Below the pieces are notes generated by a model. That model was not told where the DNA came from. It ran no database searches and worked only from the letters and a program-made list of their open reading frames with translations. Shown in pieces: positions 1,589-55,048 of a DNA stretch of 64,000 nt. The translations under genes and the position numbers were made by a program. Origin of the DNA: a bacterium (lineage in GTDB: Bacteria; Desulfobacterota; Binatia; DP-6); the NCBI GenBank assembly GCA_026129405.1, contig JAHCID010000010.1, positions 4,122-68,121 of the forward strand, in the 5' to 3' direction. Each line of letters begins with the position of its first letter. Within the stretch, counting starts at the first letter, position 1.

Positions 1589-1621
1589 ACCACCGGGGGC
1601 GTCGGTAAGCTCCGATTCCCG

Positions 1622-22950: not shown

Positions 22951-25560
22951 ATGCCATCTCCGACCGCACCGCGGCTGCATCTGATCGACGGCAGCGGGTA
23001 CGTGTATCGCGCGTTCCATGCGCTCCCGGCGCTGTCGACGACGCGCGGGCAGCCGACGAACGCCATCTTCGGATTCGCGAAGATGGTCGCGAAGCTGATC
23101 CGCGAAGAACGGCCCGACCACGTCGCCGTGGTGTTCGACGCCCCGGGGCGCGCCACCTTTCGCGACGCCATGTTCGACGGCTACAAGGCCTCGCGGGCGA
23201 GGATGCCGGACGAGCTGCGCTCCCAGATCCCGTACATCCGCCGGCTGGTCGAGGCGCTGCGGCTGCCGGTGATCGAGGAGCCCGGGGTCGAGGCGGACGA
23301 CGTCATCGGCACGCTCGTGACGCAGGCGAGCCGCGCCGGCGTCTCGACCGTGGTCGTCACCGGCGACAAGGACATGATGCAGGTCGTCGACGAGCGCACG
23401 AGCCTGCTCGACCCGATGCGCGATCGCCGCTTCGGGCCGGCCGAGGTGGTCGAGCGCTTCGGGGTTCCGCCGGCCCTGGTCCCCGACGTGCTCGGGCTCA
23501 TGGGCGACGCCATCGACGACATCCCCGGTGTCACCGGCGTGGGCGAGAAGACGGCGATGGCGCTCGTGCAGAAGCTCGGGCCGGTCGAACGTATCCTCGC
23601 CTCGCTCGACGAAGTTCCGAGCACCGGCATTCGCGGCGCGAAGAAGGTGGCCGAGACGCTTGCGCGCGAGGCCGAGACGGCGCAGCTCTCCAAGCGGCTC
23701 GCCACGATCCAGTGCGATCTGCCGCTCGAGCTCGAGCTCGAGGCGCTGCGCTGGAGCGGGCCCGATCGGGAGCATCTGCGGCCACTGCTGGTGGAGCTCG
23801 AGATCCACTCGCTCCTGCGCGAGCTCGGCGTCGCCGGCGAGACCGTCGCGATCGTGACGACCGAGGTCGACGCGGCGACCGCCTCCACGGCGGCGCGCAC
23901 GCTGGCGGCAGCGTCGGCGGTCGCGATCGTGCCGGTGCTCGAGGGCGCACGCGCCACCACGGCGGCGCTCGCGGTGCTCGCGCTCGCGGGGCCGAGCGAT
24001 CCGGTCGTCGTCGCGCGCGACCCGGACACGAGCGGCGCGCTCCTGGCGTTGGCGCCGGTGCTGAACGACCTCGCGGTCACCAAGGTCGGCGCCGACCTGA
24101 AGGCGACGCGCGTCGCCCTCGCGCGGCGCGGCGTACGCCTCGGGGGGCCGGCGTTCGACCTCGGCCTGGCGTCGTACTGTCTCAACCCCTCAGCCGCCGA
24201 TCACGGCATCGGCGCGTTGGCCGAGGAGCTGCTCGGCCATCCGCGTGCCGAGGACGAGGACGCCGTTGCGAACGCGGCGCGGGCGGCCCGCGCTGCCCAT
24301 GGTCTCGTGCCCATCCTCTCGGAGCGTCTCCGCGCGCACGAGATGGAGCGGCTCTTCCGTGACGTCGAGATGCCGCTCGCCGAGGTCCTCGCCGAGATGG
24401 AGCTCGCCGGCGTGGCCCTCGATGTGCCGGTGCTCACGCGGCTCGGGGGGGAGCTCGAGGCGTCGCTCGCCCGGCTGATGGCGGAGATCCACGAGCTCGC
24501 CGGCGGCCCGTTCAACATCGGCTCGCCGCCGCAGCTGCGCGAGGTGCTCTTCGAGCGGCTCAAGATCCCGACGCGCGGCATCCGCCGCGGGAAGACCGGC
24601 TTGTCCACCGATGTCGACGTGCTGACGCGGCTCGCGCGCGAGCACCCGCTGCCGGGCAAGATCCTCGAGTGGCGCCAGCTCTCGAAGCTCAAGTCGACGT
24701 ACGTCGATGCGCTGCCGGCGCTGGTCGATCCGCACAGCGGTCGTCTGCACACGTCGTTCAATCAGACCGTGGCGGCGACGGGACGGCTCTCGAGCTCCGA
24801 TCCCAATCTGCAGAACATTCCGGTGCGCAGCGAGGAGGGCCGGCGCATCCGCGCCGCGTTCGTCGCACCGCCCGGCCAGCGCCTGATCTCGGCCGACTAC
24901 TCGCAGATCGAGCTGCGCCTGCTCGCCCATCTCGCCGACGACCCCGGCTTGTGCGCCGCGTTCGCAGCCGAGGCGGACGTGCACGCGACGACGGCGGCCG
25001 AGGTCTTCAAGGAGCTGCCGCCGGCCGAGGGGCGGCGGTTGGCCAAGGTGATCAACTACGGGCTCGTCTATGGCATGGGCCCGTCGCGTGCGGCGCGCGA
25101 GCTCGGCGTCTCGCTGGCCGAGGCCGAGGCCTACATCGAGGGCTACTTCACGCGCTACCCGCGCGTGCGCCGCTTCATCGATGACACCATCGCCGGCGCG
25201 CGGCGTTGCGGCTTCGTTACGACCGTCCTCGGCCGGCGCCGCTACCTGCCCGAGATCGGCGCCCGCGATGCGGCCGTGCGGCAGTTCGCGGAGCGCGCGG
25301 CGACCAATACGCCGATCCAGGGGTCGGCGGCCGATCTGATCAAGCTCGCCATGCTCGAGGTGCGCCGCCGGCTGCGTGCAGAGGGATTCCGAGCGCAGAT
25401 GCTATTGCAGGTGCACGATGAGCTGGTGCTGGAGGCCCCGGATGCGGAGGCGGAACGGGCGGCGGGTCTCGTGCGGACCGTCATGGAGGAGGTCTGGCCG
25501 CTGCGGGTTCCCTTGCGGGCCGAGGTACGAATCGGGGCGAACTGGGCCGAGGTCCACTGA
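22951..25560 (+). CDS. polA: DNA polymerase I
   Basis: 5'-3' exonuclease N-terminus (LHLIDGSGYVYRAFHALP), family-A polymerase motifs A/B/C (ISADYSQIELR, RRLAKVINYGLVYG, QVHDELVLE). Confidence 0.95.
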   Translation: MPSPTAPRLHLIDGSGYVYRAFHALPALSTTRGQPTNAIFGFAKMVAKLIREERPDHVAVVFDAPGRATFRDAMFDGYKASRARMPDELRSQIPYIRRLVEALRLPVIEEPGVEADDVIGTLVTQASRAGVSTVVVTGDKDMMQVVDERTSLLDPMRDRRFGPAEVVERFGVPPALVPDVLGLMGDAIDDIPGVTGVGEKTAMALVQKLGPVERILASLDEVPSTGIRGAKKVAETLAREAETAQLSKRLATIQCDLPLELELEALRWSGPDREHLRPLLVELEIHSLLRELGVAGETVAIVTTEVDAATASTAARTLAAASAVAIVPVLEGARATTAALAVLALAGPSDPVVVARDPDTSGALLALAPVLNDLAVTKVGADLKATRVALARRGVRLGGPAFDLGLASYCLNPSAADHGIGALAEELLGHPRAEDEDAVANAARAARAAHGLVPILSERLRAHEMERLFRDVEMPLAEVLAEMELAGVALDVPVLTRLGGELEASLARLMAEIHELAGGPFNIGSPPQLREVLFERLKIPTRGIRRGKTGLSTDVDVLTRLAREHPLPGKILEWRQLSKLKSTYVDALPALVDPHSGRLHTSFNQTVAATGRLSSSDPNLQNIPVRSEEGRRIRAAFVAPPGQRLISADYSQIELRLLAHLADDPGLCAAFAAEADVHATTAAEVFKELPPAEGRRLAKVINYGLVYGMGPSRAARELGVSLAEAEAYIEGYFTRYPRVRRFIDDTIAGARRCGFVTTVLGRRRYLPEIGARDAAVRQFAERAATNTPIQGSAADLIKLAMLEVRRRLRAEGFRAQMLLQVHDELVLEAPDAEAERAAGLVRTVMEEVWPLRVPLRAEVRIGANWAEVH

Positions 25561-25616: not shown

Positions 25617-26201
25617 GTGGCGCCTAGCGACTGGGAGCTCGTACGGCGGGCCCGGGAGGGTGATCGTGATGCCTTCCGGACCCTGGTCGAGCGCTACCAG
25701 CGCAAGGTGGCGGCTCTGGCGCTCGGAATGCTCAGGAACAGGGAAGACGCCCTCGACGTGGTCCAAGAAACCTTCACCAAGGCCTACCAGAGCCTGGACC
25801 GGTTCAAAGGCGATTCGTCGTTCTACACGTGGGTGTACCGCATCGCCGCCAACCTCTGTATCGATCATCAGCGGCGGGATGCGAAGCTCGTCCACGTCCC
25901 CATCGATGCTCGCGGCAACGATGGCGAGGCGACGGGCGAGGAAATTCCTGCCGCCGCGCTCGAAGGCAGCGAACCCGACGAGCCCTTCCAGCGGGCCCGC
26001 GATGCGGAGATCTCTGCGGGCCTCGCCCGAGCCATCTCCGAGTTGACCCCCGAGCATCGCGCCGTCATACTCCTGCGCGAAGTGGATGGGCTCTCCTACG
26101 AGGAGATCAGCGAGGTTCTCGGGTGCCCGAAGGGCACCGTGATGAGCCGACTCCACTACGCGCGACGCCAGCTCCAGGAGCGGTTGCGCAGCCTGCGCTG
26201 A
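25617..26201 (+). CDS. ECF (sigma-70 family, RpoE-like) RNA polymerase sigma factor
   Basis: Sigma-70 region 2 (DALDVVQETFTKAYQSLDRFKGDSSFYTWVYRIAAN) and region 4 (LSYEEISEVLGCPKGTVMSRLHYARRQL). Confidence 0.9.
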   Translation: MAPSDWELVRRAREGDRDAFRTLVERYQRKVAALALGMLRNREDALDVVQETFTKAYQSLDRFKGDSSFYTWVYRIAANLCIDHQRRDAKLVHVPIDARGNDGEATGEEIPAAALEGSEPDEPFQRARDAEISAGLARAISELTPEHRAVILLREVDGLSYEEISEVLGCPKGTVMSRLHYARRQLQERLRSLR

Positions 26202-26223
26202 CGAACCTCCAGATGGGCCGCCC

Positions 26224-26721
26224 ATGACCTGCGACGACGTCCAGCAGCACATCCACCGCTTTCTCGACACGGAGCTTCCTCCCCCGATGCTGCTGGCGGT
26301 CGCACGACACGCCGGCGGTTGTAGCGCCTGCGAAACGCGCATCCGCGAGCTGAGCGACCTCGGTGATGCGTTGCGCGCCGAAGCCGAGGCCGCGCTCGCG
26401 ACGCTCGACATGACCCAGGTCTGGGCCGGAGTCGCGAAGGGCCTCGACGCGCACGACGCGGAGGTCACCCGGCGACGCCGGCTGCGCGCGCTGCCGCTCT
26501 GGGGCTCGGGGCTCGCTGCCGCCGCCGTCCTGGTCGCGTTGCTCGACGGGCCGCGTCCCGACGTGCAGATGACGACGTCCCACGTCGTCCAGCAGCAGCC
26601 GGTGCGGCAGGTCGCCGCCATCGACCGGCTCGCCGTCGAGAATCGCCATCAGGTCTCCGTGCGGCGCGACCAGAAGGGTTTCACCCTGATCGCGCTCGGT
26701 GACGGAAACGAGGCGCGGTGA
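26224..26721 (+). CDS. zf-HC2-type anti-sigma factor (membrane-spanning)
   Basis: Directly follows the ECF sigma. N-terminal H-x3-C-x2-C zinc motif (HIHRFLD...HAGGCSAC), central TM helix (LWGSGLAAAAVLVALL). Confidence 0.75.
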   Translation: MTCDDVQQHIHRFLDTELPPPMLLAVARHAGGCSACETRIRELSDLGDALRAEAEAALATLDMTQVWAGVAKGLDAHDAEVTRRRRLRALPLWGSGLAAAAVLVALLDGPRPDVQMTTSHVVQQQPVRQVAAIDRLAVENRHQVSVRRDQKGFTLIALGDGNEAR

Positions 26722-27239
26722 CCCGCGCGCAGGTCGGGGTGGCCGTGCTGGGCCTCGTGAGCGGCCTCGGCGCGGTCTGCCACGCCTTGCCGCCGCCGGG
26801 ACCGATCCAGGTCGAGATCCAGGCCGTCCTCGCGAGCAACTCGGGCGTCTGCGATCCGCGCGTCGCGCAGCTGAAGGCGCGGCTGCGCCGGCTCGCCGGC
26901 TTCCGCAACTACCAGCTCCTCGTCACCATCACGCGCACGCTGCCGTGGCGCGAGACGCAGGTGATCCCGCTGCCGGGCGAGCGCACCATCGTCCTCCAGC
27001 CGAAGATGATCGACCGCGGGCGGATCGTGATGCAGGTCCGCCTCCTCGAGCAGAGCCGGCAGTTCCTGCAGACCACCTTGCGCCTTCCGAACCAACACAC
27101 CATGGTGTTCTCGATGGGGCACGACGGCGTGCTGGGCGGTCTCGAGCCGGCCGAGGCGGGCAGCGCCCCTGGTCCGGGAAGCTCGGACAGCGCCTATCTG
27201 GTGCTTCTCAAGGCCGAGCATCCGAGCGCGGAGCACTGA
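26718..27239 (+). CDS. hypothetical secreted protein, third gene of the sigma/anti-sigma operon
   Basis: 4-nt overlap with the anti-sigma stop. Signal-like N-terminus. No family recognised. Confidence 0.5.
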   Translation: MTRAQVGVAVLGLVSGLGAVCHALPPPGPIQVEIQAVLASNSGVCDPRVAQLKARLRRLAGFRNYQLLVTITRTLPWRETQVIPLPGERTIVLQPKMIDRGRIVMQVRLLEQSRQFLQTTLRLPNQHTMVFSMGHDGVLGGLEPAEAGSAPGPGSSDSAYLVLLKAEHPSAEH

Positions 27240-27247
27240 CGACGGCG

Positions 27248-27550
27248 ATGACGACGTGGCTCGAGGAGGTCGGACGGCAGCTGAGCGGTGTTGCCGACGC
27301 GCTGTGGGGCGAGGTGAGCGAGCGTGGCGTGATGCCGCTGCTCCAGCCCGTGGCGCCGTGGAATCAGCCGGAGTTCCTCCAGCCGGCGGTGGCCCTCGGC
27401 GGGCTGCTCTCGATCGCGTTGCTCTCGGGGCTTGCGGTGACGGCCCTGGGGACGCTGGTGGTGACGCTGTTCGCGCTCTGGATGCTGCTGGTCGAGGTGT
27501 TCGGCGTGTCCGTCGAGCTGAACCCGCTCGGGGCGGCGGCGTCGCGCTGA
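27248..27550 (+). CDS. small two-TM membrane protein (100 aa)
   Basis: Internal ATG of a longer track ORF. Two hydrophobic helices (LGGLLSIALLSGLAVTALGTLVVTLFALWMLLV). Confidence 0.4.
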   Translation: MTTWLEEVGRQLSGVADALWGEVSERGVMPLLQPVAPWNQPEFLQPAVALGGLLSIALLSGLAVTALGTLVVTLFALWMLLVEVFGVSVELNPLGAAASR

Positions 27551-27626: not shown

Positions 27627-27804
27627 GGCGATCTAGTGTCCCGAGTCTGAAGTTCGTCACCAAATCTCGGGCGGTCTCACGCCGCCCGGCTGCGTTGCGT
27701 CTCCTCACCATGGCGACGGCCATGCCTCGTCGTCGCGCCTCGCCGGGCGGCGCGATCCCGCCCGATCTTTGGCAACGAACTTCGGACTCGGGACACTAGT
27801 CGCC
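27627..27804. repeat. 178-bp element bounded by 37/38-bp near-perfect terminal inverted repeats, with three internal hairpins
   Basis: IR-L ggcgatctagtgtcccgagtctgaagttcgtcaccaaa (27627-27664) vs reverse complement of IR-R (27768-27804) ggcga-ctagtgtcccgagtccgaagttcgttgccaaa: 34/38 identical. Internal cgggcgg-N7-ccgcccg hairpins at 27668-27688 and 27744-27764, and catggc-gacg-gccatg at 27709-27724. Confidence 0.75.
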
Positions 27805-28008
27805 GAGCGTCGACCAGTCGACGGTCCAGAAGTCGGGGACGGGGGGCCGGAGCTCGGTGTGACCGCCGAAGCAGGAGAAGCTCGGGCGGTGGGTGAGGCG
27901 TTCGCGGAGGAGGTGGAGGTGCTCCTCGACGCTCTGGCCGGGGGCGGGGGCGCCGACGTCGAGACGTTTCATGCCGCCGCATTTGCGGCAGGTGACGTCC
28001 ACGCGCAT
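27796..28008 (-). CDS. small Cys-containing hypothetical protein (70 aa; putative metal-binding)
   Basis: MRVDVTCRKCGGMKRLDVGAPAPGQSVEEHLHLLRERLTHRPSFSCFGGH... GC3 is about 93%. It starts 20 nt after the sat stop. Its stop codon lies inside IR-R of the inverted-repeat element. Confidence 0.35.
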   Translation of the reverse strand: MRVDVTCRKCGGMKRLDVGAPAPGQSVEEHLHLLRERLTHRPSFSCFGGHTELRPPVPDFWTVDWSTLGD

Positions 28009-28027: not shown

Positions 28028-29284
28028 CTACTGCTTCATCGCGGCGGCGAGGATGCGCGAGGTCGACGGACGCATGATGCGCGGGTCGACTTCCTTGCCT
28101 GCCTGGAGCGTCTGGCGGACGTCCTTGCCGGAGATCGAGACCGGCTTCTCGCCGGGGTGGTTGTCGGTGAGGTCGACGCGACCCATCGACTCGTAGAACG
28201 CCGCGAATCCGACCTTCAGCGGCTGGATCTTCAGGTCGCCGCCGAGCTTCGAGAAGATCTCCTGCGCGTCGAAGTCGCCCCAGATGGCGGAGCCGTCGGC
28301 GTAGGGCGCGTCGGCGTGCTTGCGGCCGATGACGATGTCGGTGAAGCCGAAGTTCTGGCGGTAGATGCCGTGCATCACGGCTTCCTTCGGGCCGCCGTAG
28401 AACATCTTGATGTCGAGCCCGAGCAGCAGGACGCGGTCCGGCACCGACTCGTTGCGTGGGCCCCACAGCGCGGCGTCGCTGTCGCCCTCGCCGAGGCCGC
28501 GCTGCGTGATCAGCGCTTCATAGGTCTGCATGCGCACGGCGGCGTTCACGTCGTCGCCCTTGGTCTCGCCGACGAGCGGGTTCAAGACGGCGCCGGCGTC
28601 GTGCCCCTGGCGGATCAGGGTCTCGAGGCCGTAGACGAGCGCGTACTCGTGCGCACGGTGGAGCGGGTTGCGCGTCTGGAACGCGACCACGCGCTTCCAG
28701 CCCTTCTCGCGGAACAGCGCGCGGACCTCACGCGGCGAGAGCACGTACTTGCCGAACGCCGGGTTCTTCGGCTGCGGCAGGACGCGGATCGTGCCGCCGA
28801 CGAGGTGCGTCTTGTCGGCGTCGTTCCTGAGCACCATGTCGGCGCCCGGATGATCGGTGCGCTCGGTGCCGTAGACATTCTTCAGGTAGCGGGGCTTGTC
28901 CCACGCGAACACCGACGTGACGTCGAGCGTTGCGACGAGCTCGCCCGCCGCATTGGTGAGCGCGACGGTCTGGCCGGGCTCGATCGTGCCGGCGAGCGCG
29001 CTGGTCACCGGCAGCGAGATCGGAATCGTCCAGGCGTACTTGGCGCCGTTCGACTCGATGCACGCCTCGTCGAGCACGCGGTCGTAGGTCGCCTGGTCCA
29101 TCGGGCCCCGCAGCGGGCTCAGGCCGCCGTCGCCGAAACGGTAGACGCTGGAGAGATCGGCGTCGGAGACGGGCACCTTCGGCAGGGACGCGGCCTTGTC
29201 GCGGAAGGCGGCCTGCTCGGCGGTCGGCACGGTGAGATCGAGCGGCTCGGTGAGTCCACCATGGGGCGGGATGAGATCGGGCAT
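28028..29284 (-). CDS. sat: sulfate adenylyltransferase (ATP sulfurylase)
   Basis: [11 protein letters not shown] and GRKHADAPY motifs, PUA-like N-terminal domain. Start at internal [10 protein letters not shown] with an AAAGGA RBS 8 nt upstream. Confidence 0.9.
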
Positions 29285-29345
29285 ACGGCTGTCCTTTCTT
29301 CCTGGTCTCGGTGTGTCGAAACCGTGCAGGCTAGGGGAATCGGGT

Positions 29346-29367
29346 GGCCGGCTCAAACGCGCCGGCC
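29346..29367 (-). terminator. GC-rich stem-loop abutting the stop of the 396-aa gene, about 60 nt upstream of sat
   Basis: ggccggc-tcaaacgc-gccggcc (7-bp stem, 8-nt loop) with no U-tract. Could be an attenuator or processing hairpin rather than a terminator. Confidence 0.3.
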
Positions 29368-29371
29368 GTGC

Positions 29372-30562
29372 TCAGAGGTGGGCCGAGTCGAACGACTCGC
29401 TGACGCTACGGACCCGGAGACGGCGGCGCAGGCGGGCGAGCCCGCGAGCGGCGAGGGCGCCCAGGCCCGAACGGGTGAACGACTGGACCGCCACCGAGAG
29501 CCGGGCGTCCTCGCCCGCGGCGAAGCGCGCCTCGAGCGGGGTCACGCCGAGCGTCAGGTCGCGCAGCCAGCTGGTCGGGATGCCGCGCTCGCGGACGCGC
29601 CGGAACAGGTGCTGGAGCACCGGCGTCAGCGCCTCCGGGTCGAGCCTGCGGGTGGCCGGCGTGCGGCGCACGACGATCACCGGCTGAACGTCCGCTTCGA
29701 CCAGGGTGTCGACGGCGGTCACGAGCGTCTGCGGGTCGTCGAGGCCCGCCACGAGCTCCGTCCAGACGGTGCCGCGCGGGAAGACGGTCGCGGCGTGGGC
29801 GAGGGCTTCGAGGTAGCGATCGCGGCCGATGTAGCGTGCCCGCCCGACGCAGTGTCGTCCCAGCTGCTCGGCGTCGAAGACCTCGAGGTTGTAGCTGATG
29901 GCGTCGACGCCCATGGCGTACGTGCGGTCGATCCAGCGCAGGTCGCGCGGCGGATGCGTCTGCACGACGACGAGCGTGTCGAAGTGCTTGCGCACCGCCT
30001 CGATGAGCGGGGTCAGATGGGCGATGCCGCCGTCGTCCGCATCGAAGACGCTCGAGTTGAACAGGACCAGCTCGGCGGCGCCCTCGTCGAACGCGGCGCG
30101 TACGACCTCGACGACGTCGGCGGGCGTGACGTCGCCGTGCGCAGTGCCGCGCGCGCCCTCGGTACAGAAGCGGCACGGCGCGCCGGCGGCGGAGAAGCCG
30201 CACGCACCGCCCGGGTGCACGACGAGATGCGTGCCGTGCACGGTCGCGAGACTTTGCATCGGGATGCCGCGGCCGGTCCGTTCGTTCGCGAAACGCGGCG
30301 TCCGCCCGGGGCGTACCTCGAGCCGAACGTCGGCCCGGCGCAGGTCGGAGAGGAAATAGCGGCCGGACTCGGCGGCGAGGCGATAGGGCGTTGCGCTGTC
30401 GGCACCGTCGAGCGGCGCGGCGACCTGCATGCCGTCGGGTAGCACGAGGTCGATGGTGTCGGGAGGTCGTCCCGCTGCCAGCACGCCGGCGCTGGAGTCG
30501 AGCTGGAGCCCGCCCGCGGCGACGCCGAGCTTCCAGCGCAGAGGGTCGGTCGCCGCGCTCAC
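29372..30562 (-). CDS. uncharacterised 396-aa protein with a Cx8Cx2C cluster and TIM-barrel-like periodicity (radical-SAM-like or COG1900/DUF39-like; unresolved)
   Basis: The last 396 codons of the 710-aa track ORF are protein-like. Cys cluster HPGGACGFSAAGAPCRFCTEG, followed by alternating beta/alpha segments (LVLFNSS, AISYNLEVFD, VWTELVAGLDD). The GTG start overlaps the upstream gene stop (GTGA). Confidence 0.6.
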   Translation of the reverse strand: MSAATDPLRWKLGVAAGGLQLDSSAGVLAAGRPPDTIDLVLPDGMQVAAPLDGADSATPYRLAAESGRYFLSDLRRADVRLEVRPGRTPRFANERTGRGIPMQSLATVHGTHLVVHPGGACGFSAAGAPCRFCTEGARGTAHGDVTPADVVEVVRAAFDEGAAELVLFNSSVFDADDGGIAHLTPLIEAVRKHFDTLVVVQTHPPRDLRWIDRTYAMGVDAISYNLEVFDAEQLGRHCVGRARYIGRDRYLEALAHAATVFPRGTVWTELVAGLDDPQTLVTAVDTLVEADVQPVIVVRRTPATRRLDPEALTPVLQHLFRRVRERGIPTSWLRDLTLGVTPLEARFAAGEDARLSVAVQSFTRSGLGALAARGLARLRRRLRVRSVSESFDSAHL

Positions 30563-31128
30563 GCGTCGGCTCCGCAGCGCCCGCAGACGCCGGTGGCCTC
30601 GAGCGGTCCGGCGAACGTGCCGGCGACGAGGTCGAGATGCTGTACCCGGCCCATGCCCGGCTCGAGCAGGAGGGCATAGAGGGCCTCGGCCGCGACGAGG
30701 GCCCCGAGGGCCATGGGGGCGACGTGGCGCAGCGCGCCGGTGGCGGTGGCGTCCGCCGACGGCGTCGTGGCGCCGCTCGGCGCCGGATCCCAGCAGTGGC
30801 CGCAAGGCCGCCCGACGAGCGTCGCGACCGCCCCCACGGTGCCGATGCCGTGTCCGCACACGAGCGGGACGCCGGTCATGAGCGCATGGTCGGCGAGGCG
30901 TGCGCGGGTCGTCGGGTCGTCCGAGACGTCGACCAGGACGGTCGCGTCGCCCGCGTCCTCGACCAGTATCGGCCCGGCGCGCTGCACGAGGATGCGTGCG
31001 AGCGCCGCGGCCGGGCCGTCGCCCGCCACGACGACGTGGGCGGCGTTGAGGAGATCCTGTCCCGTGCCGCCCACCTCGGGCAGCAGGATCTGACGGCTCC
31101 AGCGCTCGATCGCGGCGTCGTCCAGCAT
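30559..31128 (-). CDS. short degenerate E1-like (ThiF/MoeB N-terminal-like) protein with two CxxC pairs
   Basis: ThiF-like N-terminus (ERWSRQILLPEVGGTGQDLLNAAHVVVAG) with a degenerate Gly-loop (AGDGPAA), no DxxxxSNLxRQ-type ATP motif, and CGHC ... CGRC zinc-type cysteines. 189 aa versus about 250 aa for canonical ThiF. Confidence 0.6.
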   Translation of the reverse strand: MLDDAAIERWSRQILLPEVGGTGQDLLNAAHVVVAGDGPAAALARILVQRAGPILVEDAGDATVLVDVSDDPTTRARLADHALMTGVPLVCGHGIGTVGAVATLVGRPCGHCWDPAPSGATTPSADATATGALRHVAPMALGALVAAEALYALLLEPGMGRVQHLDLVAGTFAGPLEATGVCGRCGADA

Positions 31129-31413
31129 CTATTCGATCACGTTCTTCTCGATCGGCTCGACGGTCACGCCCTGCTCGCGCAGCCAGGCGATACCGCGCTC
31201 GATGGCGTCCTTGGCGCCGTCGAGCTCGATCGCGATGATGCCGATGTCCTCGTTGACGCTCGCCTGGCGGATGTTGAAGACCAGATCGAACTGGCGGCTC
31301 AGCTGGTAGATGAGCGGCTCCTTCACGAGACGGCTCGGGTAGGTGAGGTACAGCTTGGTTTTGTGCTGCGGACGGCTCGTGCCGCCGCGTGCGAGACGCG
31401 GGGATCGGCTCAT
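31129..31413 (-). CDS. NIL-domain protein (MetN C-terminal-like small ligand-binding domain)
   Basis: KLYLTYPSRLVKEPLIYQLSRQFDLVFNIRQASVNEDIGIIAIELDGAKDAIERGIAWLREQGVTVE fits the NIL-domain pattern. ATG overlaps the cysM-like stop (ATGA). Confidence 0.6.
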   Translation of the reverse strand: MSRSPRLARGGTSRPQHKTKLYLTYPSRLVKEPLIYQLSRQFDLVFNIRQASVNEDIGIIAIELDGAKDAIERGIAWLREQGVTVEPIEKNVIE

Positions 31414-32387
31414 CGCTTCTGCCACCCGAGCCAGAGGTTCGTGGAGAGATAGCGATCGCCGAAATCCGGGAACAGCACGACCACGGTGCCCTCCTCGAGG
31501 TCACGCGCCACCTGCAGCGCGGCGCAGTGGGCGGCGCCGCAGGACTGCCCCACGAGCAGACCTTCCTCGCGGCCCAGGCGGTAGACCATGTTGTAGGCGT
31601 CGTCGGTGGAGATGCCGAGCTTCCGGTCGAGCTCCTGCTCGTGGAAGATGCCCGGCACGATCGACGAGGCCATGTGCTTCAGGCCCTCGATGCCGTGGAA
31701 GGCGTCGTCGGGCTCGGCGGCGATCACCTCGATCGCGGGGTTCTGCTGCTTCAGATAGCGTCCGGTGCCCATGATCGTCCCGCCGGTGCCGATGCTGGCG
31801 ACGAAGTGGGTCACGGCGCCCGCGGTCTGTCGCCATATCTCCGGCCCGGTGCTCTCGACGTGCGCGCGGGGATTGGCCTCGTTGTTGTACTGATCCGGCT
31901 TGAAGTAGCGTTCGGGCGCCTCGGCGAGGCGCGTGCGGCAGAGACGGATGGCGCCGTCGGAGCCCTCGAGCGGGTCGGAGAAGACGATCGTCGCCCCGAA
32001 CGCGGTGATGACGTCCTTGCGCTCGCGGCTGACGTTTTCCGGCATCACGAGCTCGACGGGATAGCCGAGCGCCGCGCCGATCATCGCCAGCGCGATGCCG
32101 GTGTTGCCCGAGGTCGAGTCGAGGATGGTCTTGCCGGGGACCAGGCGGCCGGTCTCGATGCCGTCCTGGACCATGCGCAGCGCGGCGCGGTCCTTCACCG
32201 AGCCGCCCGGGTTGAAGCCCTCCAGCTTGGCGAAGATGCGCACCCCCGGCGGCACGCCGTCGCGCACGCGCCGCAGCTCGCACAGCGGCGTGTTGCCGAC
32301 GAGCGTCAGCACCGAGGGTGCGACGAGCGCTCCCTCGCGCGGCCCGAGCGGGCCGGCGAGGGCGGCATGGGCGACCGCGGGGTTCAT
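31410..32387 (-). CDS. cysM: PLP-dependent cysteine synthase (CysM/CysK family)
   Basis: PLP-lysine motif NPGGSVKDRAA, TSGNTGIALA, the GTGGT glycine loop, and 325 aa length. Confidence 0.88.
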   Translation of the reverse strand: MNPAVAHAALAGPLGPREGALVAPSVLTLVGNTPLCELRRVRDGVPPGVRIFAKLEGFNPGGSVKDRAALRMVQDGIETGRLVPGKTILDSTSGNTGIALAMIGAALGYPVELVMPENVSRERKDVITAFGATIVFSDPLEGSDGAIRLCRTRLAEAPERYFKPDQYNNEANPRAHVESTGPEIWRQTAGAVTHFVASIGTGGTIMGTGRYLKQQNPAIEVIAAEPDDAFHGIEGLKHMASSIVPGIFHEQELDRKLGISTDDAYNMVYRLGREEGLLVGQSCGAAHCAALQVARDLEEGTVVVLFPDFGDRYLSTNLWLGWQKR

Positions 32388-32400
32388 CGTGCGCGGACGC

Positions 32401-32676
32401 TCACCGTCCGCCGGCGATCGCCGGCACGATCGAGATCTCGTCGCCGGACTTCACCGGCGTCTCGAGGTTCTGAAGGAAGCGGATGTCCTCACCGTTGACG
32501 AAGATGTTGACGAAGCGGCGCACGGCCCCCTGCTCGTCGCAGATGCGATCGCGGATGCCCGGGTGACGGCTGTCGAGATCACGGATGAGCGCGGCCACGT
32601 CGGCTCCCTGGGCTTCCACGGCTTCGGCCCCGCCGGTGAACTTGCGCAGCGGCGTCGGCACTCGAACCTGGGTCAT
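32401..32676 (-). CDS. MoaD/ThiS-family sulfur-carrier protein, C-terminus ...AIAGGR
   Basis: 91-aa beta-grasp-like product ending in Gly-Gly plus one extra Arg (IVPAIAGGR-stop). Sits between the cysteine synthase and the ThrC-like gene. Confidence 0.7.
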   Translation of the reverse strand: MTQVRVPTPLRKFTGGAEAVEAQGADVAALIRDLDSRHPGIRDRICDEQGAVRRFVNIFVNGEDIRFLQNLETPVKSGDEISIVPAIAGGR

Positions 32677-32727
32677 AGTGTCGGGTCCTCTCCTGGGTTG
32701 CCAGCCGCGATCGGCCGGCGGCTGTGG

Positions 32728-33981
32728 TCAGACGGCCGTGGCCTCGCGGGTGCCGCGGAGCCTGGCATAGAGCTCGTCGAAGTCGGCGAGCCGGGCGGGA
32801 ATGCGGAACGGCTGCTCGACGTTGCCCGTGACCGCCTCGAGCGTCTTGTACCCGTTGCCGGTGATGCTGATGACGATCGACTCGTCGCGCGGGATGCGTC
32901 CCTGCTCGATGAGCTTCTTGGTGACGGCGACCGTGGTGCCGCCCGCGGGCTCGGTGAAGATGCCCTCGGTGCGGGCGAGGAGCTTGATGCCCTCGACGAT
33001 CTCCTCGTCGGTGACCGACTCGCCCCAGCCGCCGGACTCGCGCACGGCCTTCAGCACGTAGAAGCCGTCGGCCGGGTTGCCGATGGCGATCGACTTGGCG
33101 ATCGTCTGCGGCTTCACGGGCGCGATGAGATCCGTCTGGCGATGCAGGGCCTGCACGACCGGTGCGCAGCCGCCTGCCTGCGCCGAGTAGATCTTGAAGT
33201 CGCCCTCGACGAGGCCGAGGTCGCGGAGCTCCTTGAAGGCCTTCGCGACCTTCGGGAGGATCGTGCCGCCGGCCGTGGGGACGACGATGTGCTGCGGCAG
33301 CTTCCAGCCGAGCTGCTCGGCGACCTCGAAGCCGAACGTCTTGGCGCCCTCGGTATAGTAGGGCCGCACGTTGATGTTGACGAAGGCCCAGCCGTACTTG
33401 TCGGCGATCTCGCTGCACAGGCGGTTCACGTCGTCGTAGTTGCCGCGGATGGCGACGGCGCGCGGCCCGTAGATCGTCGAGCCGATGACCTTGCCCTGCT
33501 CGAGGTCGTCCGGGATGAAGATGTAGCAGTTGAGCCCCGCGCGGGCGGCGTGCGCCGACACCGAGTTGGCGAGGTTGCCGGTCGACGCACACGACACCGT
33601 GTCGAAGCCGAATTCGACGGCCTTCGAGATCGCCACCGAGACGACGCGATCCTTGTAGGAGAACGTCGGGTGGTTGACGGAGTCGTCCTTCACCCAGAGC
33701 TCCTGCACGCCCAGAACCTCGGCGAGGCGGTCGGCGCGCACGAGCGGCGTGTAGCCGGAGTGCATGCCGATGCGGGGCTCGCCCTCGACAGGGAGCAGCT
33801 CGCGGTAGCGCCAGAGGTTGCGCGGCCGGCTCTCGATCAGCTCGCGCGTCAGCACCTTGCCGATGGCCGCATAGTCGTAGACGACCTCCAGCGGCCCGAA
33901 GCAGGTTTCGCAGACGTGCAGCGGCGCGACCGGCGTTTCGGCGCCGCACTCGCGGCAGCGCAGTCCCGTCACGTAGCTCAT
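32728..33981 (-). CDS. threonine-synthase-like PLP enzyme with N-terminal Zn-ribbon (candidate sulfur-carrier-dependent homocysteine/cysteine synthase)
   Basis: N-terminal CxxC...CxxC (LRCRECGAETPVAPLHVCETCFGPLEV). ThrC-fold PLP-lysine motif (HPTFSYKDR). 417 aa. Confidence 0.85.
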   Translation of the reverse strand: MSYVTGLRCRECGAETPVAPLHVCETCFGPLEVVYDYAAIGKVLTRELIESRPRNLWRYRELLPVEGEPRIGMHSGYTPLVRADRLAEVLGVQELWVKDDSVNHPTFSYKDRVVSVAISKAVEFGFDTVSCASTGNLANSVSAHAARAGLNCYIFIPDDLEQGKVIGSTIYGPRAVAIRGNYDDVNRLCSEIADKYGWAFVNINVRPYYTEGAKTFGFEVAEQLGWKLPQHIVVPTAGGTILPKVAKAFKELRDLGLVEGDFKIYSAQAGGCAPVVQALHRQTDLIAPVKPQTIAKSIAIGNPADGFYVLKAVRESGGWGESVTDEEIVEGIKLLARTEGIFTEPAGGTTVAVTKKLIEQGRIPRDESIVISITGNGYKTLEAVTGNVEQPFRIPARLADFDELYARLRGTREATAV

Positions 33982-34706
33982 GGGTGATTACTCCTTTGCG
34001 CGGCCCGGACCTCGTGGCGGTCGCCGCAGGCGGCGCAGTTGGGATCGCGCGACAGCGGGACGCTGCGCCACGTCCCGGTCCGGGTGTCGATGGTGAGGAG
34101 CCGATCGCGGAACGCCGGCTCGAGATGGGCGAGGATGCGGACCGCCTCGCCGGCCTGGAGGGTCCCGGCCAGGACGACGGCAGGCCCGAGCACGCCGGCC
34201 TCCTGGCAGGACGGTACCTCGTCGGCGGGCGGGGCCTCCTCGAAGAGGCAGCGGTAGCAGGCGCTGCCGTGCGGCAGCACCGTCAGCAGCTGGGTGCGCC
34301 AGCCGAGCGCGCCGGCGTGTATGAGCGGCACCTCCGCCGCCACCGCTGCATCGTTGACCGTGAACTTGGCGGCGATCGTGTCGGTGCCGTCGAGGACGAC
34401 GTCCCAGCCGGCGAGCAGCGCCTCGTCGTCGGCGCCGAAGCGGCGGACCTCGGTTTCGATGGCGAGGGCAGGGTGCCGGTCGTGCAGCCGCGCGGCGGCT
34501 GCCAGCACCTTGGGACGCCCGACATCCGCCTCGTCGTAGAGCGGCTGGCGGTGCAGGTTCGAGATCTCGACGACGTCTGGGTCCATGAGACCGAGCGTGC
34601 CGACCCCCGCCGCCGCGAGGGCCATGGCCGCCGGGCTGCCGAGACCGCCGACGCCGATCACGAGGGCGCGGCCATGGTCGAGGCTGAAGGTGTCGGGATG
34701 GGGCAT
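33978..34706 (-). CDS. ThiF/MoeB/HesA-family E1-like adenylyltransferase
   Basis: GVGGLGSPAA Gly-loop, DPDVVEISNLHRQ ATP motif, CYRC ... CAAC zinc cysteines. 242 aa with no rhodanese domain. Its stop overlaps the ThrC-like start by 4 nt. Confidence 0.85.
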   Translation of the reverse strand: MPHPDTFSLDHGRALVIGVGGLGSPAAMALAAAGVGTLGLMDPDVVEISNLHRQPLYDEADVGRPKVLAAAARLHDRHPALAIETEVRRFGADDEALLAGWDVVLDGTDTIAAKFTVNDAAVAAEVPLIHAGALGWRTQLLTVLPHGSACYRCLFEEAPPADEVPSCQEAGVLGPAVVLAGTLQAGEAVRILAHLEPAFRDRLLTIDTRTGTWRSVPLSRDPNCAACGDRHEVRAAQRSNHP

Positions 34707-34940
34707 GCTGGCTCGTCAGACGTGTGACGGTCTCACCAGCATGCGAACATTTATCTTTCGCGGGGCCCGCGGGGGGCGCTCGCCGCGTCGGAATTAGCAC
34801 CGGTCGTTCGCCGGTTGCTGTGGCTTCGCTGGGCCGGTCCCTCCGCCACTCTGGATAAGATGTCGTGCGTCTGTCTCTCGGTCGCGAGGTAGCCCGATTC
34901 ACGCCGGCGTGTCAATGCGAAGTCGGGCCGAGGCGCGTGC

Positions 34941-35822
34941 TCACCGCCCGGCGCCGGGCTGTCCGGCCCCCGCCCGCTCGGGGTACGACGACACCGTACT
35001 CGGCACGGCGAGCCGCTCCGGGGTGTAGGCGAGGGCATCGATGCGGGCGACGAGGGCCGGCATCGGATCCTGCGCGGGGACGCCACCCGTGGTCGCCAGC
35101 TTGTCCCGGGCCTCGGCCGCGATCGGCAGCTCGGGCCGGTGGTAGGCGAGGGTAGCGAGTGCGAGGTGGGCCTCCTCGGGCTCGTCCCGATCCCTCCAGG
35201 CCGCAGCGAAGACCCATAGTGTCTGCGCCGTCGCGTCGGTGTCCGGATACTGGCGCAGGAGGCCGCGCAGGCGTGCCTCGGCGGCGCGGAGGCTGCCGCG
35301 CCGGAGGTAGAACGTGGCGATGCCGGCGTCGTGCTCGGCCAGGCTCTCGCGGCACTCGCGGATGCGCAGCGTCGCGCGGTCGGCCCACGGGGTTCCCGGG
35401 TAGCGATCGACGATGTTCTGGAACGAGCCGAGGGCGTTCGTGACCGCCTGCTGGTCGCGGTCGGGCGTCTTGTGCTGGGCCAGGTAGGCGAGGCCGCGGC
35501 GATACTCGATCTCGGCGAGGTTGGGACTGGTCGGGTGCATGCGCTCGAAGTCGCCGAACGCCGCGATCGCCTCGGGGTAGCGGTTCGAGAAGTAGTACGC
35601 CTGCGCGATCCGCAGCTCGGCCTGCTCGGCGTTCGGATCGAACGGGTACTGATCGAGCAGCGCCTTGTACTTCTCGATCGCGAGGTCCCAGGACTCCTGG
35701 TCCATCGCCTCGCTCCCCTGCGTCCACAGGTCGGCGGCCGGCGTGATCGGCTTCTTGCCTGCGCACCCGGCGAGTGCGAGCAGGACCGAGACCACGAGGA
35801 CGACCGGCAGGGTGCGCCGCAT
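34941..35822 (-). CDS. bamD: outer-membrane protein assembly factor BamD (TPR lipoprotein)
   Basis: Lipoprotein signal with lipobox ([15 protein letters not shown]), TPR repeats, and BamD-like conserved segments ([31 protein letters not shown]). Confidence 0.85.
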
Positions 35823-40689: not shown

Positions 40690-42603
40690 CTACGCGTAGC
40701 TCCGCTGCGCCAGGTGGACGTTCTCGAAGGTGAGGGGCTCCTGGTGCAGGACCGGATCGGTGCCGGCGCCGCGGAATTCCCAGGCGGCGACGTAGCAGAA
40801 GTGCTCGTCGTCGCGCTTGGCCTCGCCGTCGGGCGTCTGGCTCTCCTCGCGGAAATGTCCGCCGCACGATTCGCTGCGATGGAGCGCGTCGAAGGTCATG
40901 ACCTCGGCGAACTCGAGGAAGTCGGCGACGCGCAACGCGAGCTCCAGCTGCTTGTTCAGGTTGTTGCGGTCGCCGGGCACGCGCACGTCCTGCCAGTACT
41001 CCTGCTGGAGCTGGCGCACGCGGGCGAGGGCGGTGCGCAGCCCCGCGTCGGTGCGCGACATGCCGACATAGTCCCACATGAGCTTGCCGAGCTCGCGGTG
41101 GAAGTCCTGTACGGTGCGGCTGCCGTTCACGGCGAGCACCGTCTCGATGCGCTGCTGCACGCTCGCCGCCGCCTCCGCGAACGCCGCATGGTCGGTCGCG
41201 ACCGCGGGCAGCTTGTTGCTCGCGATGTAGTTGGCGAGCGTGTACGGGATCACGAAGTAGCCGTCGGCGAGGCCCTGCATGAGAGCGCTCGCGCCGAGAC
41301 GGTTGGCGCCGTGGTCGGAGAAATTCGCCTCGCCCAGCACGAAGAGGCCGGGGACGTTGCTCATGAGCTCGTAGTCCACCCACAGGCCGCCCATCGTATA
41401 GTGGACGGCGGGGTAGATGCGCATCGGCACCTCGTACGGATTCTCGCCCGTGATGTGCCGATACATGTCGAACAGGTTGCCGTAGCGCTCGCGGATCGTC
41501 TTCTCGCCGAGCCGTTTGATGGCGTCGGCGAAATCCAGGTAGACGGCGAGCCCCGTCGCGCCGACGCCGCGGCCCTCGTCGCAGACCGCCTTCGCGGCGC
41601 GCGAGGCGACGTCGCGGGGAACGAGATTGCCGAAGCTCGGGTAGCGGCGCTCGAGGTAGTAGTCCCGCTCCGCCTCCGGGATCTGCTGCGGCGGGCGCTG
41701 GTCCCTGGCCTGCTTCGGGACCCACACGCGGCCGTCGTTGCGCAGGCTCTCGCTCATGAGGGTGAGCTTGGCCTGGTAGTCGCCGGTCACCGGGATGCAG
41801 GTCGGGTGGATCTGCGTGAAGCACGGGTTCGCGAAGTACGCGCCGCGGCGGGTGCAGCGCCAGTTGGCCGTGACGTTCGAGTTGCCGGCGTTCGTCGACA
41901 GGAAGAAGACGTTGCCGTAGCCGCCGGTGCAGAGGAGCACGGCGTCGGCCGACCACCGCTCCAGCTCGCCGGTGACGAGGTCGCGCGTGACGATGCCGCG
42001 GGCGCGGCCGTCGACGAGGACGAGATCGAGCATCTCGCGCCGCGCGAAGAGCTTCACCTGGCCGCGGTCGACCTGGCGCATCATCGCCTGGTAGGCGCCG
42101 AGGAGGAGCTGCTGGCCCGTCTGGCCGCGCGCGTAGAAGGTGCGCGACACCTGGGCGCCGCCGAAAGACCGGTTGTCGAGCAGCCCGCCGTATTCGCGCG
42201 CGAACGGGACGCCCTGGGCGACGCACTGGTCGATGATGTGGACGCTGATCTCGGCCAGGCGGTGGACGTTCGCCTCGCGGGCCCGGAAGTCGCCGCCCTT
42301 CACCGTGTCGTAGAAGAGGCGGTGCACCGAGTCGCCGTCGTTCTTGTAGTTCTTCGCGGCGTTGATGCCACCCTGGGCCGCGATCGAGTGCGACCGGCGC
42401 GGGCTGTCGAGGATGGTGAAGGCGAGGACGTTGTATCCGAGCTCGCCCAGCGACGCGGCCGCCGATGCGCCCGCGAGGCCGGTGCCGACGACGATGACGG
42501 TGTGCTTCCGGCGGTTGGCCGGGTTCACCAGCTTCATGTCGAACTTGTGCCGCTCCCACTTGCCCTCGAGCGGACCGGAGGGGACCCTGCCGTCCAGCGT
42601 CAC
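40690..42603 (-). CDS. sdhA: succinate dehydrogenase/fumarate reductase flavoprotein subunit
   Basis: FAD Rossmann [14 protein letters not shown], covalent-FAD His context ([14 protein letters not shown]), 637 aa. Confidence 0.95.
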
Positions 42604-43268
42604 AGCCGACCTCCGGTGAAGAACACGACGACGGGAACGAGCGTGAAGCCGCCGGCGATCGCGAGGGCGACGATCTGCCCCGTGCGCCGGATCGCGGGAC
42701 GATGCGCCACGCCGAGCGAGTCGAAGGCGCTGCCGAACCCGTGCCAGAGGTGGAAGCCGACGACGCCCATCGCCAGCACGTACCAGGCGACGAGCAACGG
42801 GTTCTGGAAATCCTCGATCACCAGGCGGTGGAGGTCACGGATGCCCGGCTCGCCCGGGGTCTCGTAGTGGGGGCCGAACTTGAACATCCGGATGTGCAGC
42901 GGCACGAAGACGAGCAGGACGAGCCCGGTGAGGATCATCGTCGTCGACGCGAGACTCTTGTGGCTCGTGTGTCCCGCGCGCTTCTTCATCTGGTAGGCGA
43001 CGGGGCGCGCCGCACGATTGCGCAGCCAGACGCGAATGCCGCTCACCAGATGGGCGACGAAGAGCGCCGCCAGGCCGGCCTCTGCCAGATAGATGAGCGG
43101 GTTGGAGGTGAGCGAGTGGCTGTAGGCGTTGTAGGCGCCGGGTCCGACGAAGACGAGCAGGTTCGCGCTCATGTGGGTCGCGAGGAACCCGATCAGGGCG
43201 AGCCCCGTGAGGCCCATCAGGACCTTCTGACCGATGGTACCGGTCAGGAATTTCAGCACCCGAGACAC
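42600..43268 (-). CDS. sdhC: succinate dehydrogenase cytochrome b subunit
   Basis: Five TM helices with conserved His residues. Overlaps the sdhA start by 4 nt. Operon order sdhC-A-B. Confidence 0.8.
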
Positions 43269-43728: not shown

Positions 43729-43738
43729 GTGCGCAGCC

Positions 43739-50622: not shown

Positions 50623-55048
<4,426 letters not shown>

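Follow-up and report, generated by a model that had tools for sequence, protein, structure and literature searches.

Can a single sulfur carrier protein serve the synthesis of both cysteine and homocysteine, and which further proteins would such a system use? This question is raised by a gene cluster that we analyzed in a 64,000-nt stretch of DNA from a bacterium placed in the Binatia (GTDB lineage Bacteria; Desulfobacterota; Binatia; DP-6), taken from positions 4,122 to 68,121 of the forward strand of contig JAHCID010000010.1 (GenBank assembly GCA_026129405.1) and called the window hereafter. On its minus strand, from position 34706 to 28028, lie eight co-directional genes, seven of them upstream of the ATP sulfurylase gene sat. 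We consider it rather probable that they form an operon, repressed through an S-adenosylmethionine (SAM) riboswitch, that makes cysteine and homocysteine from assimilated sulfur via one carrier of the CysO/MetO type. The core of this operon is most likely a merger of two routes, CysO/CysM for cysteine and MetM/MetO for homocysteine, on one CysO-type carrier. The elements of the locus are as follows, from the 5' end of the minus strand; PLP stands for pyridoxal phosphate.

34748-34861, minus strand: SAM-I riboswitch aptamer (RF00162), 72.5 bits
34703-34744, minus strand: hairpin with the E1 AUG in its 3' arm, likely the translational OFF element of the riboswitch
33978-34706, minus strand: predicted catalytic E1 subunit (ThiF/MoeB-type adenylyltransferase), 242 aa; Pfam ThiF, 229 bits
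32728-33981, minus strand: ThrC-like PLP enzyme, MetM-type, 417 aa; PALP, 235 bits, and threonine-synthase models
32401-32676, minus strand: CysO/MetO-type sulfur carrier, 91 aa; Pfam ThiS, 71 bits; C-terminus ...PAIAGGR
31410-32387, minus strand: CysM-type cysteine synthase, 325 aa; cysM model, 373 bits
31129-31413, minus strand: stand-alone NIL-domain protein, 94 aa from ATG; Pfam NIL, 64 bits
30559-31128, minus strand: short E1-like subunit, 189 aa; partial ThiF, 37 bits
29372-30562, minus strand: predicted variant radical SAM protein, 396 aa, GTG start; Radical_SAM, 32.6 bits, and NCBIfam 'variant_rSAM' (NF045502), 137 bits
28028-29284, minus strand: ATP sulfurylase Sat; PUA_2, 204 bits, and ATP-sulfurylase, 117 bits
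27796-28008, minus strand: 70-aa Cys/His protein directly after sat, with conserved copies in relatives

The domain calls come from Pfam and NCBIfam profile searches of the open reading frames of the window. They agreed with every identity given to the carrier, E1, CysM, ThrC-like and NIL proteins in an earlier note on this DNA, which had been made from the letters alone. When the junctions were read directly, the coordinates and stop/start overlaps of that note were also found to be right: 4-nt overlaps join E1 to the ThrC-like gene (ATGA, 33978-33981), CysM to NIL (ATGA, 31410-31413) and the short E1 to the radical SAM gene (GTGA, 30559-30562). The statement that all seven genes abut or overlap by 4 nt held for these three junctions and for the NIL/short E1 junction, where TAG abuts ATG at 31129/31128. 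It did not hold for the other two of the six, which are gaps around the carrier gene (51 nt from the ThrC-like gene to the carrier and 13 nt from the carrier to CysM). The cluster had been said to end about 90 nt upstream of sat, and the gap measured from the 396-aa gene is 87 nt; sat is thus a separate neighbor, not fused to the cluster as the heading of the note had it. The NIL gene has an alternative start (GTG at 31425), and the ATG start of sat was set by the length of its homologs (419-421 aa). A terminator/promoter scan of 27.3-35.2 kb, a weak method in a window of ~71% G+C, detected no terminator-like site on the minus strand. The single plus-strand site that it returned is below the shuffle count and uninformative in sequence of 71% GC.

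The cluster was compared with 80 related loci found by a scan with one genome per species, all of them in metagenome-assembled genomes (MAGs), and their gene content was mapped by tblastn and hidden Markov models (HMMs). They are labeled Candidatus Binatia, "Deltaproteobacteria", Myxococcota, Thermodesulfobacteriota, Nitrospinae, Latescibacterota and others. The conservation of the neighborhood of the 396-aa and short-E1 orthologs, which the earlier note had suggested examining, was borne out: the same gene order was found in dozens of these loci, with 31-59% identity in the radical SAM protein, and the recurring order is more than chance. The closest loci (~55% identity) have the entire seven-gene order in common with the window, as well as the flanking BamD and PolA/extracytoplasmic function (ECF) sigma genes. 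Each locus has one carrier gene, and in at least 40 of them this gene is flanked by both PLP enzymes, which supports the earlier suggestion that a single carrier serves the two. Where enough sequence was available (68 loci), the carrier gene was found upstream of the 396-aa gene in 64.

Among solved structures, the best relatives of the carrier are CysO chains, namely 4n6e_B (E = 6e-24) and Mycobacterium tuberculosis CysO 3dwg_C (E = 5.5e-21); MoaD/SAMP1 models are also matched. The carrier tail reads PAIAGG-R, and across loci the GG is invariant and followed by 0-5 variable residues. In the proposed system, the carrier would form a C-terminal thiocarboxylate. Because of the Arg that follows the GG, trimming by a peptidase would be required. 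The earlier note had missed this tail, and no JAMM peptidase was found in the window.

The ThrC-like protein was recognized by PALP (235 bits), TIGR00260 (287 bits) and NF006050 (319 bits, with a cut-off of 303), and solved ThrC structures match it with E = 2e-61; indeed, curated models label such genes threonine synthase. It carries an N-terminal CxxC...CxxC zinc ribbon, as do all 42 of the 42 homologs at related loci, and four solved bacterial threonine synthases align to it only from residue 52-58 onward, leaving the ribbon unmatched. In the gene map of the related loci, the ThrC-like gene always stands beside the carrier gene. The setting is that of MetM, with the carrier 51 nt downstream and a SAM riboswitch ahead, and this arrangement is kept in 42 loci. 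In the MetM/MetO route, as the papers citing its description present it, homocysteine is made from O-phosphohomoserine and the MetO thiocarboxylate with the helpers Mec and MoeZ (Hasebe et al. 2024). From homology and gene context, we propose that the ThrC-like protein would be a MetM-type homocysteine synthase using the carrier thiocarboxylate.

The second PLP enzyme scored 351 bits with TIGR01136 (cysKM), above the cut-off of 344, and 373 bits with TIGR01138 (cysM), just below the cut-off of 394. Its best solved relatives are the Salmonella and E. coli CysM enzymes (246 bits), followed by M. tuberculosis CysM (193 bits). Its gene context suggests that it, too, would use the carrier thiocarboxylate. 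Taken together, the domains, the CysO-like carrier and the MetM/MetO arrangement support the view of the earlier note that this is a protein-thiocarboxylate-type cysteine and homocysteine system.

Upstream of the first gene, we identified a SAM-I riboswitch that was absent from the earlier note. The aptamer (34748-34861) ends 41 nt before the E1 start codon, on the same strand, and matches the model over its full length (model positions 1-108; 72.5 bits, with a gathering score of 44.4; E = 7e-16). The spacer can form a hairpin with a 10-bp outer stem, in which 34735-34744 is paired with 34703-34712 and the E1 AUG (34706-34704) is included; the minimum free energy of the leader is -29.6 kcal/mol over an 86-nt stretch (z = -2.9 in comparison with shuffles). 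This hairpin, which buries the AUG, would likely be the translational OFF platform of the riboswitch. Of the 17 diverse related loci that were tested, 11 have a SAM-I riboswitch ahead of their first gene. These 11 are every tested locus with MetM plus one locus without it (L046); no riboswitch was found at the tested Myxococcota-type loci that have no ThrC-like gene. Control by SAM marks the operon as one of methionine and cysteine biosynthesis. According to a citing paper, metM of Streptomyces albulus also has a SAM riboswitch upstream.

Several of these matches are also what would be expected of ordinary housekeeping genes lying side by side, that is, a true threonine synthase (the threonine-synthase models do pass), a sulfide-using CysM (the enzyme resembles the sulfide- and thiosulfate-using O-acetylserine sulfhydrylase B, OASS-B), an E1 and a carrier for molybdenum cofactor or thiamin synthesis (hence the MoaD/SAMP1 matches), and a decaying short-E1 duplicate. 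We give this explanation almost no weight, as the order and coupling of the genes are conserved across phyla at 31-59% identity, a hallmark of methionine and cysteine genes heads the operon, the carrier is closest to CysO proteins, and a Zn-ribbon ThrC-like gene beside a carrier is the published MetM/MetO arrangement. Furthermore, the short E1 belongs to a stable family (220 members) whose motifs are invariant, and the flanks showed none of the genes moaA/C/E and thiG.

The two E1-related proteins appear to complement each other. The 242-aa E1 has the motifs GVGGLG, SNLHRQ, GRPK and DGTD, the cysteine of PSCQEAG and two CxxC pairs, and a rhodanese domain is missing. The protein starts directly at the G-loop, the Pfam ThiF match starting at profile position 18 of 238, and its reading frame, which cannot be extended upstream, contains no R[YW]xRQ Arg-finger helix. 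The 189-aa short E1, with the N-terminus ERWSRQILLPEVGG, still has the E1 fold, the Zn-site cysteines and, as ERWSRQ, the Arg-finger helix. Its G-loop is degenerate (AGDGPAA), a deletion removes the SNLxRQ/GxPK segment, and another residue stands in place of the PSCQEAG cysteine. The short E1 represents a stable family of 220 members of 160-216 aa, with invariant motifs (R12 and Q13 among them) and a confident fold, and it is therefore not a pseudogene.

This pattern was counted over the 65 loci with enough upstream sequence. A complementary pair, made of an E1 with the G-loop and SNLxRQ but no R[YW]xRQ and a short E1 with R[YW]xRQ only, was found in 47 of them; five have one canonical E1 with all motifs present, and three have two E1 genes, both with Arg-finger and G-loop motifs. 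The truncated E1 type never occurred without its short partner at these loci. Across genomes there is thus a graded series from a single E1, through two full E1s, to a truncated E1 with a degenerate partner. Among the neighboring E1 reading frames of ordinary length (~240-300 aa), none is long enough for a rhodanese domain. Since the motif losses are complementary, the best reading is that the E1 and the short E1 would form an obligate E1/pseudo-E1 heterodimer with one active site. The short protein, which the earlier note had listed as a degenerate E1 with no obvious place, is better seen as the Arg-finger-bearing partner of an N-terminally truncated E1, as in the 47 loci. Such a contribution in trans has precedents: Arg14 of MoeB and Arg11 of ThiF reach into the ATP site of the neighboring subunit, and in the yeast ThiF-like heterodimer Tcd1-Tcd2 one subunit donates the Arg finger (PMC13139853). 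The word 'heterodimer' does not occur in a 2025 review of ThiF-like enzymes.

The stand-alone NIL protein belongs to a family of 414 members, mostly ~94 aa long (86-137 aa among the 120 matches listed). MetM and NIL genes were found together in 40 loci, MetM only in two, NIL only in none, and neither in 18 (Fisher p = 2e-13, without phylogenetic correction). In three independent MAGs (L040, positions 6430-6945; L042; L049), the carrier and NIL are fused in frame, the join reading ...AIAGG-APIKKK.... In these same three loci, two E1 genes both have Arg-finger and G-loop motifs, and no JAMM gene is nearby. From the co-occurrence with MetM and the carrier fusions, we assign the NIL protein to the carrier and the homocysteine branch. 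A NIL domain is also found at the methionine-binding C-terminus of MetN, where it trans-inhibits methionine import. A NIL-ferredoxin protein is part of the DUF39 homocysteine pathway. The NIL protein is plausibly a methionine- or homocysteine-binding regulator or adaptor for MetM. It had been regarded as an accessory outside the known schemes; it is indeed not in the published ones, and it can now be tied to the carrier and to the MetM branch (present in 40 of the 42 loci with MetM and in none of the 18 others).

The 396-aa protein had been described as a Cys-cluster protein; it is predicted to be a variant radical SAM enzyme with a lipoyl-synthase-like fold. It scored 137 bits with NF045502 (cut-off 125), and the related TIGR04043 gave 109 bits, below its cut-off. 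Its cluster motif is not the canonical CX3CX2C but CX8CX2C (C121, C130 and C133), which does not vary among 79 sequences with identities as low as 31%. Equally invariant across the family is a basic C-terminal helix motif, RRxLxV. The SAM-binding-like motifs DGG and GLxE are kept down to 31% identity, as judged from a comparison with LipA by eye and by a weak hhalign alignment. The predicted fold is the partial TIM barrel of radical SAM proteins, and the closest solved fold in a fold search was lipoyl synthase. The kinship with LipA rests on that fold search, as the radical SAM profile had no match among the sequences of solved structures and hhalign with E. coli LipA gave the expected register at a probability of only 2.5%. 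RadicalSAM.org, in the part of it that was consulted, places CX8CX2C variants in megaclusters 4-6-x and names no function there. The family is small: among 1.84 billion representatives, it accounts for 161 clusters (50% identity; E <= 1e-30). An unclassified MAG holds a 'hypothetical protein' with 100% identity to the protein of the window, whose ~370 relatives all come from metagenomes or MAGs. In the genome analyzed here, the radical SAM and short E1 genes are annotated 'hypothetical protein', and some relatives bear generic names only.

Two other assignments were considered for this protein and rejected. It is not LipA itself, as it has neither the N-terminal CX4CX5C nor the RSSY auxiliary-cluster ligands and scores 18 bits with the lipA model, whose cut-off is 310. 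It is also unlikely, as a general explanation, to be a substitute for the missing sulfite reductase, since seven distant loci with a NIR_SIR reductase and TusA keep the radical SAM gene, five of them with cysH as well. Cys238 and the Arg-rich CxGRxRYxGRxRY segment, tried as a fourth ligand or anion site, are kept in the Binatia-like subfamily only.

The gene context of the radical SAM family is consistent across loci. The radical SAM gene overlaps the stop codon of the short E1 in the window, and in most relatives it starts at most ~30 nt from the end of the short-E1 frame. A gene for an SLC13/DASS Na+/sulfate symporter (Pfam Na_sulph_symp, 214 bits) follows the 396-aa gene in 62 of 73 loci, and in most relatives it separates the radical SAM gene from sat; it is missing from this position in the window and in seven other loci (L008, L010, L011, L014, L015, L029 and L045). 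In 19 distant loci, a JAMM peptidase gene (Prok-JAB, 58 bits) lies between the carrier or short E1 gene and the radical SAM gene. One locus (L071) has an isolated carrier-JAMM-radical SAM trio with no symporter or PLP genes nearby, and the gene maps of L069 and L075 are alike. Two fusions were found, each on one contig. One joins JAMM to the radical SAM protein (L087, 719-2446), in the order E1, carrier (GG-AA), fusion and, by eye, a PHP-family phosphoesterase-like frame. The other joins the radical SAM protein to the SLC13 symporter (L086, 498-3143), with TusA before it and cysD and cysN after it; its basic C-terminal helix runs into the first membrane segment. From this context of carrier, JAMM, symporter and fusions, the radical SAM protein therefore belongs to a carrier-activation and sulfate-uptake module and to neither PLP branch.

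Some further features of these loci were recorded. A HAD-family hydrolase gene lies between the short E1 and radical SAM genes in L060, L061, L063, L068 (7032-7751), L050, L078 and L082. The symporter is followed by a USP-like protein in 21 loci and by a 7Fe-type ferredoxin (DUF3470) in six loci of the Myxococcota type. A Latescibacterota paralog (L083, 7929-9206) has a CX9CX2C motif, no carrier, E1 or symporter neighbors, and a position beside what by eye is an apparent cobalamin-binding-domain protein; the family therefore has members outside a sulfur setting.

We tentatively propose that the radical SAM protein would help to load sulfur onto the carrier acyl-adenylate; no other step of the mechanism is as weak, and we hold this one at somewhat less than even confidence. 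A chemical precedent is offered by TtuA-type thiolases, in which a sulfide on the free iron of a three-Cys [4Fe-4S] cluster attacks the adenylated substrate. Competition of SAM for the cluster iron would add feedback by SAM, which is speculation. In more general terms, the CX8CX2C protein might serve an undescribed step of sulfur assimilation, either Fe-S delivery or C-H thiolation, physically coupled to the SLC13 symporter and to the E1, carrier and JAMM, and acting together with what would be the first bacterial obligate heterodimeric E1; we regard this as possible, with clear reservations.

The same evidence can be read in two other ways. The protein could be a third consumer of the thiocarboxylate, inserting sulfur into C-H bonds in the manner of LipA or BioB via a 5'-deoxyadenosyl radical, with JAMM releasing the product from the carrier. 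The radical SAM fold, the SAM-site-like motifs conserved down to 31% identity and the ferredoxin gene beside the module in six loci would all suit this role, and an external sulfur donor would be needed, as no auxiliary-cluster Cys motif is present. The trio of L071, which has no PLP enzyme and the architecture of Mec-CysO-CysM, and the JAMM fusion would suit it as well. We nevertheless find it unlikely: neither a substrate nor a product suggests itself, an end-of-pathway enzyme would hardly be expected to be so tightly coupled to a sulfate symporter (62 of 73 loci and one fusion), and a SAM-using enzyme sits awkwardly in an operon that low SAM would turn on.

The near-constant adjacency to the transporter and the family-wide invariance of the C-terminal RRxLxV would instead fit a regulatory SAM or redox sensor that docks on the symporter by its C-terminal helix and gates uptake or carrier loading, with no sulfur chemistry of its own. 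In the symporter fusion, this helix leads into the first membrane segment; the USP-like protein after the symporter in 21 loci is of a kind that is a common regulatory partner of transporters, and the MetN NIL domain offers an analogy for control of import. We consider this distinctly improbable, since it leaves unexplained the carrier-JAMM-radical SAM unit of L071, which has no symporter, and the JAMM fusion, and since the radical SAM gene persists in the window and in seven relatives that have no symporter at that position. Nor are we aware of any radical SAM fold that acts purely as a sensor.

Returning to the reading we prefer, a shared-carrier operon with sulfur loading supported by the radical SAM protein, the steps would be the following. 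At low SAM, the leader would free the first start codon, and the translationally coupled genes would be made. The carrier precursor (..GG-Arg) would be trimmed by a peptidase encoded elsewhere, which in distant relatives would be a JAMM enzyme of the cluster; this peptidase may also release cysteine or homocysteine from the carrier, by analogy with Mec+ and HcyD. The heterodimeric E1 would then adenylate the C-terminal glycine of the carrier, the 242-aa subunit providing the active site and the 189-aa subunit, otherwise catalytically dead, providing the Arg-finger helix in trans. The acyl-adenylate would be converted to a thiocarboxylate, with the radical SAM protein possibly acting as an Fe-S sulfur relay in place of a MoeZ-type rhodanese domain. 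From homology and gene context, CysM and the Zn-ribbon MetM would use this thiocarboxylate to make cysteine and homocysteine, and the NIL protein may work with the carrier on the MetM branch. Sat would tie the operon to sulfate activation, with the reduction of adenosine 5'-phosphosulfate (APS) and of sulfite encoded outside the window.

A number of observations weigh against this scheme. None of the following was found in the 64-kb window: JAMM, SLC13 symporter, USP-like protein, TusA, sulfite reductase, APS reductase, cysH and cysC. Trimming, product release and sulfur reduction therefore have to rest on genes elsewhere. The CysM resembles enterobacterial OASS-B more closely than it does the M. 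tuberculosis enzyme, which depends on CysO. The SAM-site-like motifs of the radical SAM protein point to true radical chemistry more than to the passive relay of sulfide; loci with a sulfite-reductase-like gene and TusA still carry its gene, and each of its fusions is known from a single contig. All relatives of the cluster are from MAGs or metagenomes of uncultured bacteria. Finally, the Arg finger was reported to be non-essential in MoeB and ThiF (PMC13139853), and the short E1 could have another role.

In subsets of the related loci, sat, cysC (APS kinase), APS-reductase-type cysH and cysQ are found further downstream. In seven loci (L038, 3860-4834; L051, 3947-4186; equivalent sites in L040, L042, L049, L053 and L085), a ~330-aa sulfite-reductase-like protein (NIR_SIR_ferr and NIR_SIR, with an inserted 2x[4Fe-4S] ferredoxin) and TusA are encoded between MetM and the carrier; five of the seven have cysH downstream, with or without cysQ or sat. 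These loci are an almost complete supercluster from sulfate to cysteine and homocysteine. In the window, a 70-aa protein (CxxC...C..H; 27796-28008) is encoded 19 nt after the sat stop; copies with 66-80% identity follow sat in Binatia-like loci, in six by tblastn and in ten by a family HMM. It had no Pfam match, and it is possibly part of the operon.

The cluster is flanked by BamD/YfiO (34941-35800, minus strand) on one side and, on the other, by ECF sigma, zf-HC2 anti-sigma and small membrane protein genes (25617-27550, plus strand) and PolA (22951-25560, plus strand), which are syntenic with Candidatus Binatia MAGs; this synteny makes a Binatia-like source of the window probable. Further away, the window encodes a GAF/HisKA_3 histidine kinase followed by a 631-aa sulfatase (Pfam Sulfatase, 190 bits) at 18-3517 on the plus strand, 25 kb from the operon and with no link found to it. 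At 5152-8775 on the minus strand, two reading frames of 278 and 884 aa, supported by codon usage, have no Pfam match at E <= 1e-6. The minus-strand regions 40690-46724 and 52010-55048 encode a succinate dehydrogenase/fumarate reductase flavoprotein, cytochrome oxidase subunits I and III and a 1012-aa 4Fe-4S dicluster protein. Given the nearby genes for an aa3-type oxidase and succinate dehydrogenase, the organism is probably aerobic. An idea from work on M. tuberculosis is that thiocarboxylate routes shield reduced sulfur from oxidation, and a probable aerobic lifestyle would fit such protection here.

How does this system compare with those already described? It shares with the CysO-CysM-Mec+-MoeZ system of M. 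tuberculosis a CysO-type carrier beside a CysM-family PLP enzyme and an E1 of the ThiF/MoeB family. It differs in that the E1 of the window is split and has no rhodanese domain, no JAMM (Mec+) is encoded in the window, the CysM is nearer to enterobacterial OASS-B than to the O-phosphoserine enzyme of M. tuberculosis, the carrier stands beside a second PLP enzyme, and NIL and radical SAM proteins are added. Krishnamoorthy and Begley are said to have described, in 2011, a homocysteine pathway of Wolinella succinogenes made of HcyS, HcyD, HcyF and MetY, with Sir. That pathway is similar in the trimmed C-terminal extension of its carrier, its adenylating enzyme, its link to assimilatory sulfur reduction and its product. 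However, its acceptor enzyme is of the MetY type, not ThrC-like; its cluster includes JAMM and sulfite reductase genes, whose counterparts are found here only in distant relatives; and it has no radical SAM, NIL or pseudo-E1 protein.

A NIL domain is also dedicated to homocysteine synthesis in the pathway of DUF39 and a NIL-ferredoxin protein (MA1821/MA1822) in methanogens and Desulfovibrio, and JGI gives some homologs of the window NIL protein the name of that pathway. The window protein, unlike its counterpart, has no ferredoxin domain and no DUF39 or COG2122 partner, and the chemistry proposed here would be based on homoserine phosphate and thiocarboxylate. As regards LipA and BioB, the 396-aa protein has only 14% identity, CX8CX2C where they have CX3CX2C, and no auxiliary-cluster ligands; it has an extra N-terminal beta domain of ~100 aa and the basic C-terminal helix, and its gene context is entirely different. 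Heterodimeric E1s are known in SAE1-SAE2, APPBP1-UBA3 and yeast Tcd1-Tcd2, the first two with one inactive subunit. In contrast to these enzymes, the putative pair of the window, deduced from motif loss, is bacterial, minimal (242 and 189 aa) and would serve a sulfur carrier, not a protein modifier.

As described in citing papers, the MetM/MetO system of S. albulus likewise has a ThrC-like enzyme adjoining a ThiS/MoaD-type carrier, with a SAM riboswitch upstream. Its published helpers are Mec and a rhodanese-containing MoeZ, whereas the E1 of the window is split and no JAMM is encoded locally; in the window the carrier is shared with CysM, and the NIL protein, the radical SAM protein and the link to sat and the symporter are absent from the published scheme as those papers relate it. 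We had been alerted to three components outside the published schemes, and the NIL, short E1 and radical SAM proteins are indeed absent from them, although the short E1 does have an obvious place, as half of a split E1. The composition as a whole had not been recognized in the earlier note, and our literature searches for the gene combination, for CX8CX2C enzymes and for sulfur assimilation in Binatota also returned no description of the system. Most of its parts are known, and what is new is mainly their arrangement, with CysO/CysM and MetM/MetO sharing a carrier, under a SAM riboswitch and with a link to sulfate activation.

The narrow context of the radical SAM family, made up of the carrier, E1/JAMM, sulfate symporter and ATP sulfurylase, makes a possible new reaction of sulfur assimilation directly testable. 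If our reading of the two E1 proteins is true, the split E1 would be a simple bacterial model for the origin of heterodimeric E1s with a pseudo-subunit. If the proposed operon is what it appears to be, two thiocarboxylate pathways that were characterized separately would share one carrier and one SAM riboswitch in widespread uncultured bacteria of soil and sediment.

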